The position numbers were made by a program, and so were the translations under genes. This document shows positions 20,254 through 63,572 of a stretch of 64,000 nucleotides of DNA, in pieces. Source of the stretch: an uncultured virus (IMG/VR IMGVR_UViG_3300015371_000022) (taxonomy: Duplodnaviria > Heunggongvirae > Uroviricota > Caudoviricetes). Location of the stretch: IMG/VR virus record IMGVR_UViG_3300015371_000022, one strand, 5' to 3'. Numbering within the stretch: position 1 is the stretch's first letter; every line of letters starts with the position of its first letter. The notes beneath the pieces are model-generated. The model was not told where the DNA came from and did no database searches. It saw only the letters and a program-made list of their open reading frames with translations.

Positions 20254-20814
20254 TCACTCCCAGCTAATGCGATCAATGGTCGTTGGACCCTTGTACCCTC
20301 TTTGCCACACGAACCAAGCGAACGGCATTGCACTCGATGCCTTCGGTCCCTCCCAGCCCTTCCTGTGCATCATCGGCAGGCGGTTGCGAAACACATGAAT
20401 GCGCGCCAGGCCGGAGTGCTCCAGGATGTCGGTACGCTTCACACTCTCCAGGAATGCCAGCCGCAGCAACATGATCACCAGCGGACTAAATTCGAGTGCC
20501 TTACGAACGAATGCTTCCGCCAGCTGATATGGCGGATTGGTCACAACTGCGTCAGTCGTCCGATGACCAGCAGTCAAAAAATCGATGCCTGATAACCCGC
20601 AACCGTATTGATGCAAATCCGTGGCAAACACCTCGTGTCCGTGATCACGGAGAACCTTGACAATCGACCCTGGCCCGCACGCCGGTTCCCACACAGAATG
20701 AGGGAGACTCTCGACGCGCAAGAGCGCCTCAACGGCGCAAGCCGGAGTTTCGTAGCAGTCATCACCACGATCCTTGTAAGAATGCTGTCCTGCTTGGGCG
20801 GATTTATCGAGCAT
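20254..20814 (-). CDS. SAM-dependent DNA adenine methyltransferase-like protein
   Basis: YETP, WEPACGPG (motif I), VVTNPPY (motif IV). Confidence 0.8.
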   Translation of the reverse strand: MLDKSAQAGQHSYKDRGDDCYETPACAVEALLRVESLPHSVWEPACGPGSIVKVLRDHGHEVFATDLHQYGCGLSGIDFLTAGHRTTDAVVTNPPYQLAEAFVRKALEFSPLVIMLLRLAFLESVKRTDILEHSGLARIHVFRNRLPMMHRKGWEGPKASSAMPFAWFVWQRGYKGPTTIDRISWE

Positions 20815-28189: not shown

Positions 28190-28732
28190 ATGACCGATCT
28201 CGATGAAACCACCATGGCCGCGCTGGCGCGTGACCTTGTGCTCAATATCCGCAGCTACAAAGAGACCTTTGCGGAGTTTGGAATCGACGAAAATGACTAC
28301 CAACGGATTGAAAAGAATGAGTTCTTCCGCAAGGTCCGCGAGCAGCTGATCGCCGAGTGGAACGCGATCGGATCGACCGAAGAGCGCATCCGCTTCCAGA
28401 ACCTGGCCTACTTCGAAAAGCTCGGCCCGGTGATCGCCCGCCGCGCCATGCAGCCGGACGCCAATCTGTCGGCATCGACCGATGTCGCCAAGGTGGTGAT
28501 GCGCGCCGCCGGCATCGGTGAGGACAAGGGCGACAAGCCTTCCAACGAACGCTTTGTCATCACCATCAACCTCGGCGGCGAGAGTGAAACCTACGACAAG
28601 GCGATCGACATCACCCCCGACGATCCCCCGCGCGGGAAACAGCAAGAGCTCGCACGCGAGCGCGAGATGCAGACCCCACGCAAGCGTAGGACGCGCAAGC
28701 AGCTGCCTGACCTGGTGCTGAAAAATGAGTGA
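28190..28732 (+). CDS. Probable terminase small subunit
   Basis: N-terminal helical DNA-binding-like region, FVITINLG beta-strand; upstream of TerL. Confidence 0.6.
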   Translation: MTDLDETTMAALARDLVLNIRSYKETFAEFGIDENDYQRIEKNEFFRKVREQLIAEWNAIGSTEERIRFQNLAYFEKLGPVIARRAMQPDANLSASTDVAKVVMRAAGIGEDKGDKPSNERFVITINLGGESETYDKAIDITPDDPPRGKQQELAREREMQTPRKRRTRKQLPDLVLKNE

Positions 28733-28904
28733 TTACGCCATTACTTATGCCAACGACGGCAGGTCGCTGGTGCTGCACCGCATCGACTGCCCCGACGTGC
28801 GTGCCCAGGCCAAAGCCGGCGAGCCGGTGCTCTCGCTGTTCGACTGCCAGCGCGAGCCCAAGGAGGGCGAGGTCAAGCGCCACTCCTGCCTGAAAGGGCA
28901 CTGA
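28725..28904 (+). CDS. Small Cys/His hypothetical protein (59 aa; not in ORF track)
   Basis: MSDYAITYANDGRSLVLHRIDCPDV...RHSCLKGH; TGATG coupling to TerL. Confidence 0.5.
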   Translation: MSDYAITYANDGRSLVLHRIDCPDVRAQAKAGEPVLSLFDCQREPKEGEVKRHSCLKGH

Positions 28905-30361
28905 TGGCAGTCATCTACACGGCACCGCCGACGGTCGCGCGGTTCATGAAGTCGAGCGCGTTCGGCCGCATCATCGCCGGCCCGGTGGGGTCGGGCAAGA
29001 CCACCGGCTGCGTGATGGAGACGCTGCGGCGCTCGCTCAGTCAGGCCAAAGCCACCGACGGCTATCGCTACACCCGCTGGGCGTTCGTGCGGCAGACGCT
29101 CAAACAACTGAAAGACACCGTGCTCAAAGACGTGCAGTCCTGGCTGGTGGGCCTGGGCGACTGGAAGGTGTCGGACAACACCTACTACCTCGACTTCGGC
29201 GACGTGAAATCAGAGTGGATCTTCGTGCCGCTGGAAAATGCCGAAGATCAGGCCCGGTTGCTGTCCATGCAATTGACCGGGGCGTGGCTCTCGGAAGCCA
29301 TCGAGATGAACTTCGACATATTGGCCCCCGTTTCGGGCCGTATTGGCCGCTATCCAAGCGGCAATCGCGGTGTCCCGAGCTGGTACGGCATCATTGCCGA
29401 CACCAACATGCCAGTCGAAATGGGTGAGTGGCATAAATTTATGACCGAGCCGCCGCCGAACTGGCAGGTCTTCATCCAGCCAGGCGGCATGTCGCCGGCC
29501 GCTGAGAATCTCAATTATCTGCTGCAGACCGAAGAGACGAAAGTACTTCCCATCAACCATCCGCTCCGGCTCGCGCAGGGACGCAAGTACTACGAGCAGT
29601 TTCTGCAGATGTACGGGAGCGATCACCCGTGGGTACGTCGGTACGTTGACGCGCAATACGGCGACGACCCTTCTGGCGAAGCTGTCTTTAGAGCGAGCTT
29701 CAAGCCATCGTTCCATGTCGTACCCGATACCCTTGTGATACCAGGCTATCCACTGATCGTAGGACAGGATTTCGGCCGGAACCCCTGGTCCGTCATAGCG
29801 CAAGTCGACCATCTCGGACGGTTGCTGGTTCATGAGGAAGTCCCCGCTACCAATGTCGGTCTCGAGAAACACGTCGAACAGCAGCTACGGCCCCGCCTGT
29901 TCCAAGAGCGTTTCATCGGTTCCAAAGTCATCCTGGTCGGCGATCCATCGGGCATTTCCAAGGGGACGATCGCCGAGGAGACCAGCTTTGAAGCACTGAA
30001 ACGCATGGGCCTGCCGTGCTTCCCGGCTCCAACGAACGACATCGACCCGCGCTTGCGTGCGGTGGAAGCGTTGCTTGGCAAGCAGGTCAACGGTGGACCG
30101 GCGCTGATCATCAACGGCAGCAAGTGCCCGTTCCTGGTGCGCGCCATGAGCGGCGGCTACCGCTACAAGAAACACAAGGACGGTGGCCTTCGTATCGTCC
30201 CTGAGAAGTTCGACAAGGAAGGCTTCTCGCATGTCGCCGACTGTCTACAATACATCGCCCTGGTGGTCCACGGCGGGCTGGTGCATGAGTTCGCCCGCCG
30301 GCTGACCCCGACCCGGCGAACGTATCAGCGCCCGCAGATCACCGCCGCGGGATGGACCTGA
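28904..30361 (+). CDS. terL: Terminase large subunit
   Basis: Walker A GPVGSGKT, Walker B-like AWLSE, DTN coupling motif, nuclease GQDFG...GDPSG...SHVADCLQY. Confidence 0.9.
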   Translation: MAVIYTAPPTVARFMKSSAFGRIIAGPVGSGKTTGCVMETLRRSLSQAKATDGYRYTRWAFVRQTLKQLKDTVLKDVQSWLVGLGDWKVSDNTYYLDFGDVKSEWIFVPLENAEDQARLLSMQLTGAWLSEAIEMNFDILAPVSGRIGRYPSGNRGVPSWYGIIADTNMPVEMGEWHKFMTEPPPNWQVFIQPGGMSPAAENLNYLLQTEETKVLPINHPLRLAQGRKYYEQFLQMYGSDHPWVRRYVDAQYGDDPSGEAVFRASFKPSFHVVPDTLVIPGYPLIVGQDFGRNPWSVIAQVDHLGRLLVHEEVPATNVGLEKHVEQQLRPRLFQERFIGSKVILVGDPSGISKGTIAEETSFEALKRMGLPCFPAPTNDIDPRLRAVEALLGKQVNGGPALIINGSKCPFLVRAMSGGYRYKKHKDGGLRIVPEKFDKEGFSHVADCLQYIALVVHGGLVHEFARRLTPTRRTYQRPQITAAGWT

Positions 30362-30405
30362 CACCGGCACGCTGCTAGTTTGTAATTTTACAAGGGAGCA
30401 GCAAC

Positions 30406-30786
30406 ATGAAAAAGCGCAAGAAGTCGGCGACCACCCGCCGGCCATTGAATAAAAAGACCCTGCGCCGGGTCCGCACCGCCGGCACCGCGGCATCCTCGCG
30501 CTACACCGTTGGCGGCAAGCGCAACAAGAAGCGCAAGCCGGTGAGCGTGGCAAAGACCGCCAAGCGCAAGGCGGTACGCAAGCCGAAACCCACTGCCAGC
30601 GTGACAGAGATCGCCGAAGCCACACAGAAGCTGCAGGAATACCACGAACCTCGAGTGGACGATCCGGGCGAGCATGTCCGAGTTATTCCCAACAAATCTG
30701 ACGAGCAACCGGGTGTGCGGGACGTGCAGCCTGTGCTGCAAGGTGATGACAGTCCCGAACTTCCCGGGGAAACCGAACCCACATAA
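30406..30786 (+). CDS. Highly basic hypothetical protein
   Basis: Lys/Arg-rich N-terminal half; GGAG RBS; overlaps the next ORF. Confidence 0.45.
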   Translation: MKKRKKSATTRRPLNKKTLRRVRTAGTAASSRYTVGGKRNKKRKPVSVAKTAKRKAVRKPKPTASVTEIAEATQKLQEYHEPRVDDPGEHVRVIPNKSDEQPGVRDVQPVLQGDDSPELPGETEPT

Positions 30787-31120
30787 GTGGTGCGCCCACG
30801 CGCGGCCCGGTAAAGGCTGCAGCATTTACGCGGATCGCCCGCAGGAATGCCGGGATTTTGCTTGCCTGTGGTTGATCGACGGCCGCATCCCGGACTACTG
30901 GTTCCCGAAATGGTCGAAGATCGTGATCGCGCCACATCTGGCGGAGAAAGAAAAGTACGTCGCCTTCATTGTGGACCCGGCCTATCCAGGAAGGTGGCGG
31001 GAAGAACCGTGGTTCAGTGATCTGAAGAAGCTGGCAAAGGCGGGGATCGACGGGTCGCTGGGGCAAAAATGGACTTCATTCGTTCTTGTCGGAGACGATC
31101 GCATTCAAATCGGAGCCTGA
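30674..31120 (+). CDS. CxxCxxCC (YkgJ-like) Fe-S/Zn cluster protein
   Basis: CGTCSLCC...WC...GCSIYADRPQECRDFAC. Confidence 0.75.
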   Translation: MSELFPTNLTSNRVCGTCSLCCKVMTVPNFPGKPNPHKWCAHARPGKGCSIYADRPQECRDFACLWLIDGRIPDYWFPKWSKIVIAPHLAEKEKYVAFIVDPAYPGRWREEPWFSDLKKLAKAGIDGSLGQKWTSFVLVGDDRIQIGA

Positions 31121-31131
31121 ATTCCGACCAG

Positions 31132-31746
31132 TCAGCGACCGCGAGCGGGTTGTAGATCGGCGCGTACTGCCATACGAGCTCCATCGTCGACTTGAGATCC
31201 ATTGGCCGTCTCCACCTTGTGGAAGATGATGTCCATCAGCTTGCGGCGGTCCTCCGGCAGGAACTGGTAGCCGTAGCCCCACAAGGTCGAGACTTTAATC
31301 CCGAATGGCTCGAGCCGCTTGCGGATCGAACAGATATGCACACCTATCGACACCCCGGTCATGGTGCCGGCGAGCCGCTCGCGCAGCAACGTCGGGTACT
31401 GCAGCAGCACCAGCAGCAAGCTGATTTCGGTCGGCGTCAGGTGGAACACCTCCTGCATGGCCACGAACAAGCGATCGCGGTTCTCGCTCACCAATCTCGA
31501 GAGCTGCAGCGCACGCTGGTCGCGTGGAAACCCGGGTGGCCAGTCGTCGCGCGGCAGGTCGAGCAGCTTGCCGGCAGCCTGGGCGATGCGCAGGCGTTCG
31601 CGCACGATGTCGGACGACAGCTTGATCGCTCGAGCGATCGCGCGCAGCGGCACACCTTCGTCCGCCAACCGGATGGCGATATCGGGGATGACCCGTTCGG
31701 GGTCAAACCCTTGGGATCCCACTTGGGCTAGTGGTTCAGCCGCCAT
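31132..31746 (-). CDS. Transcriptional regulator: N-terminal HTH plus OmpR/CtrA-type winged helix, no receiver domain
   Basis: GVPLRAIARAIKLSSDIVRERL (HTH); HLTPTEISLLLVL...IGVHICSIRKRL...VSTLWGYGYQF (Trans_reg_C). Confidence 0.8.
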   Translation of the reverse strand: MAAEPLAQVGSQGFDPERVIPDIAIRLADEGVPLRAIARAIKLSSDIVRERLRIAQAAGKLLDLPRDDWPPGFPRDQRALQLSRLVSENRDRLFVAMQEVFHLTPTEISLLLVLLQYPTLLRERLAGTMTGVSIGVHICSIRKRLEPFGIKVSTLWGYGYQFLPEDRRKLMDIIFHKVETANGSQVDDGARMAVRADLQPARGR

Positions 31747-31983
31747 GACCCCCAATACAGCCGATTCTTAAACATTTAAAGGGAAAAAGCGGCTAGATCA
31801 GAGACCTAGCCGCAACAGGGAGACCATTGACGGCCAAGTATAGCAGTCTGGCACAGTCGGTACAGCCACCTATTTTAGCCGCAAATTTGGTGGTTTTGAC
31901 CCCGAATCGGCAGGACAAAAGGCGAACTTGGCAAAAAATACTGCTGCCGGGTTGGTGCCACGGTTAACGACAGCGAGGTTGAC

Positions 31984-32181
31984 TTAATAACCAACCAGCG
32001 CGTGCCACAACCACCTCAGACCGGCGAACGCCCAGAGAAGCGCAATCAGCCAGAAGCAGCCGAGGAATAACAGGTCGGCACTGGCCGAATAGGGGTAACC
32101 CTGACCCCAGAGCTTGGGGTTGAACCGAATGACTTTTGTCAAGGGATGGGGTTCGAAGATCTTGGGATCGAGTTTTTTCAT
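31984..32181 (-). CDS. Small membrane protein
   Basis: 65 aa with hydrophobic C-terminal half; downstream of leftward TTGACA elements. Confidence 0.4.
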   Translation of the reverse strand: MKKLDPKIFEPHPLTKVIRFNPKLWGQGYPYSASADLLFLGCFWLIALLWAFAGLRWLWHALVGY

Positions 32182-32217
32182 GGTAGTGAGGTAGCCGGCT
32201 GGTATGGGGGTTGCAAG

Positions 32218-32264
32218 TTAACATTTGTCAATGTGAGGTATTTTGTATCCTTGACTTCTGTCAA
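32218..32264. promoter_or_regulatory. Two TTGAC-N4-GTCAA-type palindromes (leftward -35 elements)
   Basis: ttaacatttgtcaa at 32218-32231 and ttgacttctgtcaa at 32251-32264. Confidence 0.6.
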
Positions 32265-32449
32265 TCATGGTATTTTTGTACCGTTAAATTTTTGGGGGTT
32301 GGGATATTTCCAACCTCCTGGGGAAGAATGCGCGCGCCGGCCGGGGCCTGGCCAGCGTCCCCCGGGGGTGGGGGGTGGGGGGTCTGCCGCGGCGAGGACT
32401 GTGGCCAGAGCTCGGCTCTGCCGTCGACAAGCGCCAAGAGCTCGAGCTT

Positions 32450-32960
32450 GCATTGACGGAATGAATCAATGATATCAACAACTAGCTCCAAATCCTTCCT
32501 ATGCAAAACTTAACATTTCTGCATGGCCATGGTCCGTTCTCGAGTTATGCAGCCTCAAAAGCATCGAAAGCAAACCCGACCGGATAGAAGATAGTATAAT
32601 CAAATCAATGGCTTATGTGTATCACTATCTCAGAATCCACGTTTTTCCCAACTACAGTCCCCCCTTTTTTTTTTCTCTCCAGAATCCACAGAATCCCACA
32701 ACCCTTTATTTTTAAACTTACGTAACGAGATAATATTATACCTGTAAATATCTATATGATTCTAAGAATAAATAACGTCAATACAGTGATTTTGCTTGAC
32801 AGTTGTCGGACGATAGTTTCATCTGTATCAATATACGATATGACCGTACGAAAAAAATTTTAGGAGAGGTGTATTACTTGGAAAACCGCGGATTCCGAGA
32901 TACCGAGATATCAAGGGTAAACCATCTTCCTCAGGCCTCCGTGCCGTCAGAGTCCATTTC
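32450..32960. other. AT-rich non-coding control region (candidate origin or genome end)
   Basis: No ORF of 60 aa or more between 32506 and 32963; poly-T and poly-A runs; cagaatcc x3; transcription diverges here. Confidence 0.55.
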
Positions 32961-32962
32961 TC

Positions 32963-32994
32963 CTATTGACAAGCGTCAATAGTCCCCCTATAGA
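32963..32994 (+). promoter_or_regulatory. Sigma70 early promoter with operator palindrome over the -35
   Basis: TTGACA-17-TATAGA; ctattgac-aagc-gtcaatag perfect 8-bp arms. Confidence 0.8.
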
Positions 32995-33044
32995 AAGAGC
33001 GCGCCGCGATTGTGCGGTACCTGGAACCAACAAGGCAAAATGAC

Positions 33045-33569
33045 ATGTCTGATCCATTTGAAGGACTCGACGATAATCTGGACCACGGCGCGGACGAAAG
33101 CCCGCAGACCATGCAAGGTCTATTCGACAACGCCATTGCCGCGCGGCAATTCATGCGTGCCGGCAATGCCACGGTGACGCTCGTCAGCAAGGCTAGCGGG
33201 ACGCGGTTCACGTTTCGCATCAGCGAAGCCCGCGACAAGACGACCGGCAAGCGTACCGGCGACGGCACGCTGTTCGTCGGTTTGCTCGCCGGAGCGGACA
33301 ATAACAACGACTATCGCTACATGGGCCGCATCGCGCGCGACGTGTACTGGCACGGCCGGCGGGTACCAAAGCCAACCGACGTCTCGAGTGAAGCCAAGTC
33401 GGCCAAGGCGTTCAGCTGGACATGGCGCAAGCTCATGCAAGGCGAGCTGCCCGACGTGTTGGAGGTCTGGCACGAAGGCAAATGCGGCCGCTGCGGCCGC
33501 AAGCTCACCGTGCCGTCGTCCATTGCGTCAGGATTTGGTCCGGAATGCATCGGTAAAATTTTCGGTTGA
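33045..33569 (+). CDS. DUF6011-type zinc-ribbon protein
   Basis: C-terminal CGRCGRKLTVPSSIASGFGPEC. Confidence 0.75.
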   Translation: MSDPFEGLDDNLDHGADESPQTMQGLFDNAIAARQFMRAGNATVTLVSKASGTRFTFRISEARDKTTGKRTGDGTLFVGLLAGADNNNDYRYMGRIARDVYWHGRRVPKPTDVSSEAKSAKAFSWTWRKLMQGELPDVLEVWHEGKCGRCGRKLTVPSSIASGFGPECIGKIFG

Positions 33570-33836
33570 AGCATGCCGGCCGGTCAATCCCAAGCTTTCG
33601 GGCTTAGGTCGCGCAAACGGTGGGCCAAACGTGAAGCCCGCCGCTTGCGCCAGCAAGCGGAGATGTTGCGCCAAATGGGGCGCAAACACCTAAAGGAAAA
33701 GATCGGCGGGAAAAAACCTCGCCGCCCTAGTCCTAGGCCATAGGACAAACGAAACGGGCTTCCTTGGCCTTCCTACGGAAGCACCATACTACCACTAAGG
33801 GCAATCCTGCCCGACAACGGTAATGAGGTAAGGCAA

Positions 33837-34121
33837 ATGTCCTATTCGTTCCACATCGACCCGGGTCACGGCTGGCTAGCGGTCCGGCATGATGATCTGG
33901 CTGCGTTAGGTCTGAGCGCGGTTGATTTCACGGCATGCAGTCACATTGACGAGCGCAACATCTATCTGGAGGAGGATTGTGACGCCGGGAAATTCATTGA
34001 CGCCTACAAGGCAAAGCATGGCCGCGCGCCCGACATTTTGGAGCGTCACAGCAACTCCGACTCCTTCATTCGCCGCCGCCCGCGCAATTTCCGCGGCAAG
34101 TGGCAACCGTTCGCCCGCTAA
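33837..34121 (+). CDS. Conserved phage early protein
   Basis: DPGHGWLAV...YLEEDCDA motif; GAGG RBS. Confidence 0.65.
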   Translation: MSYSFHIDPGHGWLAVRHDDLAALGLSAVDFTACSHIDERNIYLEEDCDAGKFIDAYKAKHGRAPDILERHSNSDSFIRRRPRNFRGKWQPFAR

Positions 34122-43057: not shown

Positions 43058-44662
43058 TCATACCACGCTGGGTCGACGGAATGCTCAATGTGATGTCGAT
43101 CATCTTGTTCCCGTCGCGCAACCATACGACAGCCACCATCATAATTTACACTCTGGTCATCGGCATCGGGTTGTGGATATGGCTAGGTTCCTGGTTGTGG
43201 CTGCCGGCGACTGTGCTCAGTATGATCATGGCTTGGATGCTCACGGAGTGGTTTTTCTGACATGAAACTCAACGGCGGACTGAAAATCACCTCCAACGGC
43301 TACGGCTCGAGCACTATCCATATCGATGTCGAGCTCTCGAGCGTCGAGGAGGTCGATGACCTGCAGGCCTATTGCCGATATGCCCTGAAGTTCACCAAAG
43401 CCTGGGCGGCACGTTGTGCCAAGCATCGGGAAAAGCTCAATGTCACGCAACTGGGAACGACACGCAAGGGCGCTTGACCTGCGGCTCGAGGGCAAGACGC
43501 TGCCCGAGATCGCTGCCGAGTTCGGTGTCAGCAAGGAATACGTGCGGCAGATGGTGGTGCTGGCCAAGGCGCAGCTGGCCTATCGGGTGTTCAAGGGTGT
43601 TCCGCGCCCGTTACCAAAACCATCATGGGAGAGAAACAGTGAAGCTATATCGCAAGCGTGGCTTGACGCGCATGACGCCATGGCAGCCGGACACCAACAT
43701 GGAAGGCGTAACCGTGTCGCCGGAAGACAGTTTGGCTGGCTCGCCGCGAATTGGTGACATGATCGCCGAGGATCCCACCAACAACTCGCGCTGGCTGGTG
43801 AGCGCAAGCTACTTCGCCCGCAACTATGAAGAAGTAAAATAATGTGGGGGATGGAGCATATGCGCCACCTGAAGAAGGGTGAGAGTGAAGCGTCGGGCTG
43901 GATCGTAGGTCTGTCGCTGGCGCTCGCCACCGTGCTGGCGCTGGCAATAATTTTACTCACCGCCTGTCAGATGCCGCTGCGATGACCCACAAAGAAAAGC
44001 TTCTGTTGCTGATGCTCGAGCACACGCCCGACCGCAACACCCAGGCGGTAATTTTACAGAGCTTCATCGCCGAATACGGTCCCCTGAGTGAGGATGTTGG
44101 GGACAAAGTACGAAATCTGTTGAAAACCAAAACGAGCGGAGATCGACCATGACGACACCAAGCCAAGCTGAATTCTTGCTGCGGCTCGCCGAGAACTCGA
44201 GCGAAGCCGGCGAAGAGGTCATCAACGAGATCCGCCGGCTGGGCACCGCCCATGCGCAACGCTTGCTCGGCGACAAAGACCTGATAGAAAAAGCCTTGGA
44301 GATCAATCGTCAGGATCTGCAACGGTTTGCGCAGTATCTGCCGGCCCGGGTGATGCAGCAGCCAGCACCCCGTGCCTTGATTAACGGAGGATCCAGTGAG
44401 GAAAAGACGCCGGAACGGCAACGGCCACAAGCCAGTCCGCAAGGTCAACGATCGTAAGACCACCCAGCGCGCCCGCATGCGCGTGCTCAAGCGCGCGCTC
44501 GAGCGCGGCATGGTGACCAACGAGGAAGCCAAGCGCATCGGTAATTTCAACCAAGCCTACTACCATCTCAACAAACTGGCGCAGGCTGGCGTTCTGAAGC
44601 GGACCGGTTACAACACATGGGTACCCGTGCGGCGTAAGGGTCGCCGTCCAGCGGTAGTATAA
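43054..44662 (+). CDS. Small middle genes: 43054-43260 (membrane), 43262-43477, 43440-43757 (sigma-region-4-like HTH), 43639-43842, 43842-43985 (TM plus LTAC lipobox-like), 43982-44152, 44149-44457, 44396-44662 (winged-helix-like)
   Basis: Coupled plus-strand ORFs; GKTLPEIAAEFGVSKEYVRQM HTH; AYYHLNKLAQAGVL wHTH pattern. Confidence 0.55.

Positions 44663-57887: not shown

Positions 57888-57888
<1 letters not shown>
57721..57888 (-). CDS. DUF6496-like small basic protein (55 aa; not in ORF track)
   Basis: MRRFKQGKLHSGGTGKVVTNRKQAVAIALSEAG; TAATG overlap with the giant gene. Confidence 0.7.

Positions 57889-63572
<5,684 letters not shown>

Follow-up and report, generated by a model that had tools for sequence, protein, structure and literature searches.

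A receiver-less OmpR-type phage regulator with a CtrA-type reading head at family level and a candidate role at late promoters

Here we describe a phage-encoded regulator in which an OmpR-type winged helix is fused to a small N-terminal helix-turn-helix (HTH) and no receiver domain is found. It is the 204-amino-acid (aa) product of a minus-strand open reading frame (ORF; 31132–31746) in a 64,000-nucleotide (nt) stretch of DNA from an uncultured phage of Alphaproteobacteria, the whole of which we call the window. At the level of its family, both this architecture and the resemblance of its DNA-reading head to that of CtrA hold on sequence grounds, and from them we infer its function: with about even confidence, we read the protein as a phosphorylation-independent late activator acting on boxes of the form TTAAG-N2-TTTCTTAAG.

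Domain architecture of the regulator

An earlier note on this DNA had proposed such a receiver-less winged helix joined to a second HTH, and we located every string that it quoted in the translation: GVPLRAIARAIKLSSDIVRERL at residues 31–52, HLTPTEISLLLVL at 102–114, IGVHICSIRKRL at 134–145 and VSTLWGYGYQF at 153–163. The proposed architecture was borne out by Pfam and by an AlphaFold2 model built from an alignment of 32 relatives (mean predicted local distance difference test score (pLDDT) 83.8). Searched alone, the regulator matched Trans_reg_C (PF00486) over residues 100–162 with an E-value of 3.3e-5 and 24.3 bits, below the cut-off of 26.2 bits. The same domain was matched by 32/32 aligned relatives (best E 9.1e-10), scored 35.8 and 41.0 bits in two deep members of the family (L009 and L021), and is a precomputed assignment on most homologues. 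PF00486 membership, judged from these profile matches, holds at family level and is borderline for the query protein. No Pfam match to a receiver domain (Response_reg) was obtained in the regulator even at E ≤ 10.

Upstream of the winged helix, Pfam detected a weak HTH_28 match at residues 24–66 (E 0.018), and across the family the N-terminal HTH gave weak matches to HTH_28, HTH_23, HTH_38 and Sigma70_r4_2. A protein atlas search with the N-terminal part returned generic small viral HTH clusters only, with no family name. This HTH carries a family-invariant RLADEGVP..AIARA, and the linker that follows is invariant at P65, D68, W69, P71, G72, R75, D76 and R78 in 32 relatives, its W and P remaining invariant in 16 deep members. 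In the family alignments, the DNA-binding domain is more variable than either RLADEGVP..AIARA or the linker LP..DWPPG.

The AlphaFold2 model places the recognition helix at residues 131–148 and the wing hairpin at 152–162 (strands 152–155 and 159–162). OmpR/PhoB effector domains begin with a four-stranded beta-sheet, which is missing from the predicted model of the regulator; two helices (77–88 and 90–101; pLDDT 90–97) are modelled at the positions to which the beta-strand region of CtrA and PhoB aligns. Response regulators can be aligned with the protein as far as the wing, and the extra C-terminal helix beyond it, which is without counterpart in canonical OmpR domains, has a nearly invariant R167 and M171.

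Sequence searches of the PDB returned OmpR/PhoB domains, namely the stand-alone 2m1b (E 1.3e-4 for the window protein alone and 5.8e-7 for the profile), PhoB, SaeR and OmpR, with no CtrA-named chain among the matches at E ≤ 1 or E ≤ 10. Foldseek against the PDB gave nothing at E ≤ 0.001, and its whole-model matches were MarR-like with a poor root-mean-square deviation (rmsd). With VIA-align, the model matched DrrD (1kgs; Z 7.8, rmsd 2.8 over 80 residues), ArlR (Z 7.6) and DrrB (Z 7.3, 33% identity over 63 residues), and OmpR-type, MarR-type and MotA-type domains tied at Z 7–9; on this predicted model, the fold alone does not decide between the OmpR and MarR subfamilies. A homodimer prediction from two copies yielded a median score of 0.32 against a mark of 0.42, which is not evidence either way.

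Among characterized proteins, the PhoB/OmpR effector domains (PF00486; 1qqi, 1gxp, 1opc; 2m1b) are the best profile matches for the window protein and its close clade, and a TVDVH-type start of the recognition helix is common to both. The regulator differs from them in having no receiver partner, in its added N- and C-terminal modules and in a domain identity of 27–29%.

Resemblance to CtrA within the family

A word-indexed search found 338 homologues at E ≤ 1e-3, and an exhaustive HMMER search yielded 423 clusters at 50% identity, of which 202 reached E ≤ 1e-10. Nearly all of these proteins are 150–260 aa long; among the 150 best of the 423, lengths run from 77 to 262 aa, with a repetitive 1022-aa protein as the one exception. 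The two-domain build is common to all family members. Relatives were placed on 47 viral contigs and at 16 places in bacterial genomes, every one of them from Hyphomicrobiales or an unclassified Proteobacteria MAG (eight in Pleomorphomonas, two in metagenome-assembled genomes (MAGs) of Hyphomicrobiales, four in "Proteobacteria" MAGs, and one each in Salinarimonas and Ancylobacter), the bacterial copies lying within prophage early operons. In Pleomorphomonas oryzae, the order is a divergent CI-like HTH_3/S24 repressor, a small ORF, a DUF669 gene, the regulator and a Prim-Pol primase; in Ancylobacter, the homologue has a GcrA-domain gene on one side and helicase, terminase, portal and P22-type coat genes on the other. 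An identical copy of the 204-aa regulator is present on IMG/VR contigs, and none of the cultured phages searched with the regulator protein matched it at E ≤ 1e-3. Within a soil phage lineage whose genomes measure about 55–70 kb, the regulator gene belongs to the core set. Full-text literature searches of main texts retrieved no name for or study of the family, nor of a phage-encoded receiver-less CtrA-type regulator.

The recognition helix and wing of CtrA, as given in the earlier note, agree with CtrA orthologues from three alphaproteobacterial genomes, which read LKIIDVFICKLRKKL ... IETVWGRGY. We compared the family with these three sequences (420–426 bits on the CtrA model NF045991) and with 19 other OmpR-family regulators of one genome. 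A Cys in the recognition helix was found in 3/3 CtrA sequences, 21/29 family members and 0/19 non-CtrA paralogues; the wing Trp, which is present in CtrA, occurs in 25/29 family members and 1/19 paralogues. The window protein has kept both residues. The deep members, comprising prophage and distant viral copies, share 9–12/15 helix residues with CtrA, and the basal ones 11–13/15. The Pleomorphomonas copy, for instance, reads PKIIDVFVCKIRAKL ... IETIWGQGY, and one viral copy shares 13/15 helix residues with CtrA (IKIVDVFICKLRKKL). For 16 deep members, the CtrA model was the commonest NCBIfam match (12/16, best E 2.8e-8), and it was the top match of the Pleomorphomonas protein; the curated cut-off of NF045991 is 350 bits, and the top deep member scores 32 bits. 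From these comparisons, the basal branches of the family are clearly CtrA-like in the recognition helix. A "TK" motif that falls on T170 of CtrA (numbered as in PMC6847485) was dropped as a diagnostic, being present in 8/18 deep members but also in 2/19 paralogues.

The window protein has moved away from this pattern. Its domain is 24–27% identical to CtrA and 27–29% identical to PhoB in two alignments, its NCBIfam matches rank as PhoB, TctD, IS630 transposase and OmpR models, and its clade has TxDVH in place of KIIDVF at the start of the helix. By sequence it is no closer to CtrA than to PhoB, and its own CtrA resemblance is marginal. It shares with CtrA (NF045991) the OmpR-type winged helix, the recognition-helix Cys and the wing Trp, and its candidate target is a CtrA-type direct repeat, TTAA-N7-TTAA, overlapping the −35. 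Unlike CtrA, it has neither a receiver nor a phospho-acceptor Asp; it carries instead the small HTH and the LPRDDWPPG linker, with an extra C-terminal helix after the wing, and its AlphaFold2 model has helices in place of the N-terminal beta-sheet.

In phylogenetic trees, the family formed a robust clade (100/99) apart from all receiver-bearing regulators, with the prophage copies branching nearest the base and the window clade nested. The phylogeny against OmpR subfamilies, a check put forward in the earlier note, does not single out a CtrA sister: approximately unbiased (AU) tests rejected 0/6 candidate sister groups. CtrA was the best-likelihood sister only when the deep members were included (+13.2 versus +5.3 to +9.8); without them, OmpR-like and sortase-response-regulator-like sisters did better than CtrA. 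On our reading, the winged helix of the family would have descended from, or converged on, a CtrA-type head, with the window protein as a derived member.

TTAA-N7-TTAA boxes, the proposed late activator and rival readings

The promoter boxes of the earlier note exist: the window holds four exact TTAA-N7-TTAA sites, against 0.08 expected by chance, and all four read TTAAG-N2-TTTCTTAAG on the late (minus) strand in one orientation (Table 1). The site at the portal/terminase-operon junction looks like a symmetric divergent promoter with very short leaders, and the junction box stands at a fixed 22–25 nt from the portal ATG in close relatives. Counting both directions of this bidirectional site, 5/5 promoter readings have a 9-nt spacer between the box and a −10-like sCTAnn hexamer (GATAGT, CCTAGG, CCTAAC, GCTACT and GCTAGC). 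Because this spacer recurs in all five readings, the box spans about −36 to −22.

The link between gene and box was then followed across relatives. We examined 80 loci centred on the large terminase (TerL) out of 205 TerL relatives found, taking E ≤ 1e-5 as a regulator homologue, and detected one in 58/80. Among the 22 loci without a regulator, the flank on the side expected to hold the gene is shorter than about 1.5 kb in 20, measures 1,976 nt in one and reaches 10 kb in one (L159); the last showed no regulator homologue even at E ≤ 1. The portal junction (125 nt upstream of the portal gene) was readable in 39 distinct versions, of which 17 had an exact box, 15 a box with one mismatch (mostly CTAA-N7-TTAA) and seven none, compared with a shuffled expectation of 1.1/39. 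When the regulator was on the same contig (30 versions), 25 junctions had a box with at most one mismatch. Conversely, no box was found in the two relatives that have adequate flanks and no regulator, L159 (13.7 kb) and the syntenic Rhizobium phage RHph_TM3_14A (24.7 kb). The co-occurrence of homologues and boxes across phages, which the earlier note had put forward as a check, was thus found, together with co-absence in two relatives.

Regulators with a "VH" helix type go with boxes 22–25 nt from the portal ATG and TTAAG half-sites, and those with a PKMVDVV-type helix go with boxes 41–52 nt from it, often GCTAA-N6-CTTAA. In two distant relatives (35% identity), the regulator gene itself has a full TTAACTAATTATTAA box 45–60 nt upstream. 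An exact TTAA-N7-TTAA was found in none of the 16 bacterial loci; a one-mismatch scan revealed a conserved TTAA-N7-TTAT/C before the primase operon in Pleomorphomonas prophages, other totals being near shuffle levels.

Several side observations concern these loci. Two boxless junctions that have the regulator, those of L117 and L155, differ from each other, one having half-sites at N8 (TTAAGAAATTTCTTAA) and the other a consensus TTGACA-N17-TATAAT. The Pleomorphomonas near-box (for example TTAAGAATGTCTTAT) stands directly before the DUF6511/Prim-Pol operon (L009:11146, L011:11122, L015:11137, L017:10849 and L019:5970), 0.65–1.15 kb downstream of the regulator gene start. In a sub-lineage within L145–L177 (e.g., L151, L162 and L169; TerL about 68–70% identical), the portal follows TerL on the same strand and the regulator lies 4.1–5.1 kb upstream of TerL on that strand; because the order of portal, TerL and regulator is altered in this subset, the module has been rearranged and the regulator nonetheless kept.

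These data suggest the following mechanism for the late-activator reading. A winged helix from a phage and prophage family whose basal members have a CtrA-type recognition helix, with a small HTH and linker replacing the receiver, would be produced from a gene that has its own short promoter and that a terminator insulates against the divergent control region. Two copies of the protein would sit head to tail on the direct repeat TTAAG-N2-TTTCTTAAG, whose halves are spaced by 11 bp; this repeat overlaps the −35 regions of four late promoters, of which one is bidirectional, and host RNA polymerase would be recruited from there to the portal, terminase, head and tail operons. Of these steps, we infer box binding, activation rather than repression, dimerisation and the timing of expression. 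P2 Ogr, Mu C and T4 MotA are phage late-gene activators that recruit host RNA polymerase. The role proposed here is the same, that of an early-made protein activating late promoters without a good −35, and the sequence families are unrelated; the MotA activation domain also tied in the structure search (Z 8.5, rmsd 4.2 over 90 residues), a value within the range of a common arrangement.

If the reading is true, the phage would supply the signal itself, with no wait for that of the host, which would complement the known reading of phage sites by host CtrA. The module would be compact (one protein of 170–200 aa and one 15-bp box), usable for studying OmpR-type activation without phosphorylation-driven dimerisation and for asking whether phages tamper with the alphaproteobacterial cell cycle.

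A number of findings weigh against the late-activator reading. The window protein shares 7/15 helix residues with CtrA, within the 4–7/15 of the 19 paralogues, and 5/12 wing residues, versus 3–8/12 for the same paralogues. NF045991 is absent from its NCBIfam matches at E ≤ 1, and whereas all 32 close relatives are matched by PhoB models, the CtrA model matches 18 of them (best NF045991 E 4.9e-4). The earlier statement that features of the helix and wing are closer to CtrA than to a generic OmpR domain stands for the helix Cys, the wing Trp and the deep members, but not for the window protein as a whole, for which PhoB models outrank CtrA. The alpha2–alpha3 loop, through which other OmpR-family activators contact RNA polymerase, is about 9–11 residues shorter in the alignment of the window clade than in CtrA and the deep members. 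Five of the 30 regulator-bearing junctions have no box, and the co-variation of helix type with box type and position, though suggestive, separates just two clades and is confounded by phylogeny. Finally, the residue aligned with what we take to be the base-reading Arg of PhoB varies in the close clade (S, R, N, H, K, W), and the boxes stay TTAA-type; this combination fits an invariant reader such as host CtrA.

The last point leads to an alternative that we consider rather unlikely and nevertheless the strongest competitor, in which host CtrA~P activates the four late boxes, tying late expression to the host cell cycle, and the phage protein serves some other purpose; regulation of different sites is one possibility, and modulation of, or competition with, CtrA at the same boxes, as a timer or anti-CtrA factor, is another. 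All four boxes fit the canonical host CtrA consensus, TTAA-N7-TTAA, exactly, and among relatives there are TTAACCAT-type half-sites and TTAA-N7-TTAAC. The box type also persists while regulators diverge to about 32% identity and their helix positions vary. Against host CtrA as the reader, the lineage carries the regulator among its core genes, and both regulator-less relatives with syntenic late regions are boxless as well, although Rhizobium hosts have CtrA; moreover, were CtrA itself the activator, it would be hard to see what a receiver-less protein with a CtrA-type helix is for. A precedent is the "lytic deferment" described by Mascolo et al. 2022 (PMC9437464), in which host CtrA controls alphaproteobacterial phage genes, binding predicted sites in unrelated phages. 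That system shares with ours the CtrA-type boxes in promoters of alphaproteobacterial phages. There, the reader is host CtrA~P and the sites are described as clustering in intergenic or terminal-repeat regions near early genes, whereas here single boxes head late operons and the CtrA-type reader is carried by the phage; the term "phage-encoded" is absent from PMC9437464. The late-activator and host-CtrA accounts could also be combined, as competition or a hand-over between CtrA and the phage protein. GafA is reported as the direct activator of the Rhodobacter gene transfer agent (PMC6363796, PMC9638019); it too is an alphaproteobacterial activator devoted to phage-like structural genes, and it acts inside a network under CtrA control. 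No search here showed a sequence relation between GafA and the regulator.

We regard as improbable a third account, in which the protein binds CtrA-type boxes mainly on the host chromosome (for example at the origin or at pilus, flagellar and division genes), locking or unlocking the cell-cycle programme, with the phage boxes secondary. The CtrA-like recognition helix of deep family members, the position of the gene in prophage early operons and a GcrA-domain gene three genes upstream of the regulator in one prophage, a hint of wider mimicry, all speak for it; the link between gene and late-junction box is, however, already explained by a phage-internal role, and the helix of the window protein has diverged from CtrA. 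The GcrA-domain protein itself is a 428-aa product of the Ancylobacter prophage (L021:6572–7858, plus strand; GcrA cell-cycle-regulator domain, E 2.4e-21), and would be a second look-alike of a host cell-cycle regulator in the same early operon. 

A broader reading, which we hold about as likely as host CtrA acting at the late boxes, is that phages of Alphaproteobacteria captured or converged on the DNA-reading head of CtrA and replaced its phosphorylation switch with the conserved HTH-plus-DWPPG unit. CtrA-type promoters could then be fired at will, independently of CtrA proteolysis and of the CckA–ChpT–CtrA phosphorelay. Host sites of CtrA, such as the origin and pilus, flagellar and division genes, may be occupied by the phage protein too, which would reprogramme the cell cycle during infection.

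Least probable of all, in our estimate, is that the protein is an ordinary DNA-binding phage regulator, for instance a repressor or an autoregulator at the divergent control region, with an OmpR-type fold that has nothing to do with the TTAA boxes and with CtrA-like residues that are convergent or due to chance. Such a role would suit a gene that adjoins a repeat-rich 1.26-kb control region (with ACTTTTGTCAA three times and TTGACA-type inverted repeats), a tree that does not place the family beside CtrA, and the tie between MarR-type and OmpR-type winged helices. It is difficult to reconcile with the CtrA-specific Cys and Trp and the 11–13/15 helix matches in deep members, which are hard to ascribe to chance, and with the joint presence and joint absence of gene and box; in addition, prophages have a separate CI-like S24 repressor, and no integrase turned up among the window ORFs scanned. 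Identity as the lysogeny repressor was rejected on the ground of that separate S24 repressor in prophage relatives.

Control of the regulator gene and its genomic setting

The regulator ORF is isolated, with the convergent end of the terminase operon on one side and, on the other, the control region that precedes the early operon; its G+C content is 0.78 at third codon positions (GC3) versus 0.44 at second positions (GC2). Hairpin and T-run elements occur in relatives at the same place as the intrinsic terminator directly upstream of the gene (Table 1), which is predicted to shield the gene from leftward transcription out of the control region. Between terminator and start codon lies a promoter-like element, and seven distinct close relatives (L004, L005, L022, L023, L024, L029 and L036) have GAATC-N2-3-CT(G)TATTG or GATAATG 6–9 nt before the ATG. 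The GAATC is a GANTC site, conserved 2–3 nt upstream of the −10-like element in these seven relatives. CcrM methylates GANTC, and GcrA reads this mark, so that expression of the regulator might depend on methylation state.

The earlier note had stated that the gene lacks a ribosome-binding site and had suggested leaderless, autoregulated expression from TTAA half-sites upstream. The first statement goes too far: a GGGGG ends 3 nt before the ATG and has G-rich counterparts in relatives (GAGGG, AAGGA or AAGGG, 3–6 nt before the start). The half-sites are present, but at N4 rather than N7 spacing, and are not conserved; since they are absent from relatives, the suggestion of leaderless autoregulation was not upheld.

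Table 1. Coordinates of the regulator gene, its protein segments, the boxes and upstream elements in the window
Feature	Position	Strand	Description
Source genome	64,000 nt		Uncultured virus IMGVR_UViG_3300015371_000022, Caudoviricetes
Regulator gene, 204 aa	31132..31746 (including stop codon)	minus	ORF list and translation
N-terminal three-helix HTH, residues 22–57	31576..31683	minus	AlphaFold2 helices 22–29, 34–41 and 45–57; pLDDT 88–93
Conserved linker LPRDDWPPGFPRDQRALQLSR, residues 64–84	31495..31557	minus	Contains LPRDDWPPG; model pLDDT 66–77
OmpR/PhoB-type winged helix (Trans_reg_C), residues 100–162	31261..31449	minus	Pfam, PDB profile matches, AlphaFold2, alignments
Extra C-terminal helix, residues 164–195	31162..31257	minus	AlphaFold2; carries conserved RRK.MD.IL
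Promoter-like element GAATC-GG-CTGTATTG	31753..31767	minus	6 nt before ATG
Two TTAA half-sites, N4 spacing	31768..31779 (31768–31771, 31776–31779)		Absent from relatives, including a 73%-identical one
Intrinsic terminator, 11-bp stem then TTTTT	31789..31813	minus	Directly upstream of regulator gene; terminator scan and inverted repeat
Box TTAAGAAAATCTTAA	28151..28165		Divergent portal/terminase-operon junction; 23 nt from portal ATG, 24 nt from first terminase-operon ATG
Candidate late-promoter box, reads TTAACAATTTCTTAA	19610..19624	minus	58 nt upstream of ORF starting 19551
Candidate late-promoter box, reads TTAAGCGTTTCTTAA	16493..16507	minus	Just past major head gene, 37 nt upstream of ORF starting 16455
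Candidate late-promoter box, reads TTAAGCATTTCTTAA	915..929	minus	60 nt upstream of ORF starting 854

In the wider window, the minus strand from 28127 leftwards encodes structural and lysis genes (portal/adaptor, major head, tail fibres and internal virion protein). A short terminase operon runs rightward from about 28190 to 31120, and the replication genes (DNA polymerase, helicase and primase) occupy 33012 to about 57450 in the same direction. The large terminase shares 51% identity with its counterparts in the Rhizobium phages RHph_TM3_14A and TM27A. A DNA search of 30000–34000 gave a single irrelevant 87-nt match.

In the control region, AC(T/A)T(T/C)TGTCAA occurs three times and TTGACA/TGTCAA inverted repeats occur several times, within 32130–32270 and 32790–32980; there are also a G-run (32360–32385), a long T-run (about 32664–32674) and an AT-rich stretch (32480–32880); these repeats and runs are candidate operators, early promoters or origin. 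Neither a phage RNA polymerase nor a complete sigma factor was found among the window ORFs scanned, a point in favour of the late-activator reading. A 113-aa early protein (43416–43757, plus strand) has a Sigma70 region 4-like HTH (Pfam E 1.8e-5) and could join the early-to-late switch. Amid the late genes, a 186-aa ORF (20254–20814, minus strand) matches PHROG 799, "DNA methyltransferase" (E 3.1e-60), over positions 199–382 of the 458-position profile, with no Pfam match at E ≤ 0.001, and may be a fragment or split gene. Past the replication genes, on the late strand, a 1894-aa ORF (57888–63572, minus strand) has a Large polyvalent protein associated domain 38 (LPD38) near its C-terminus.

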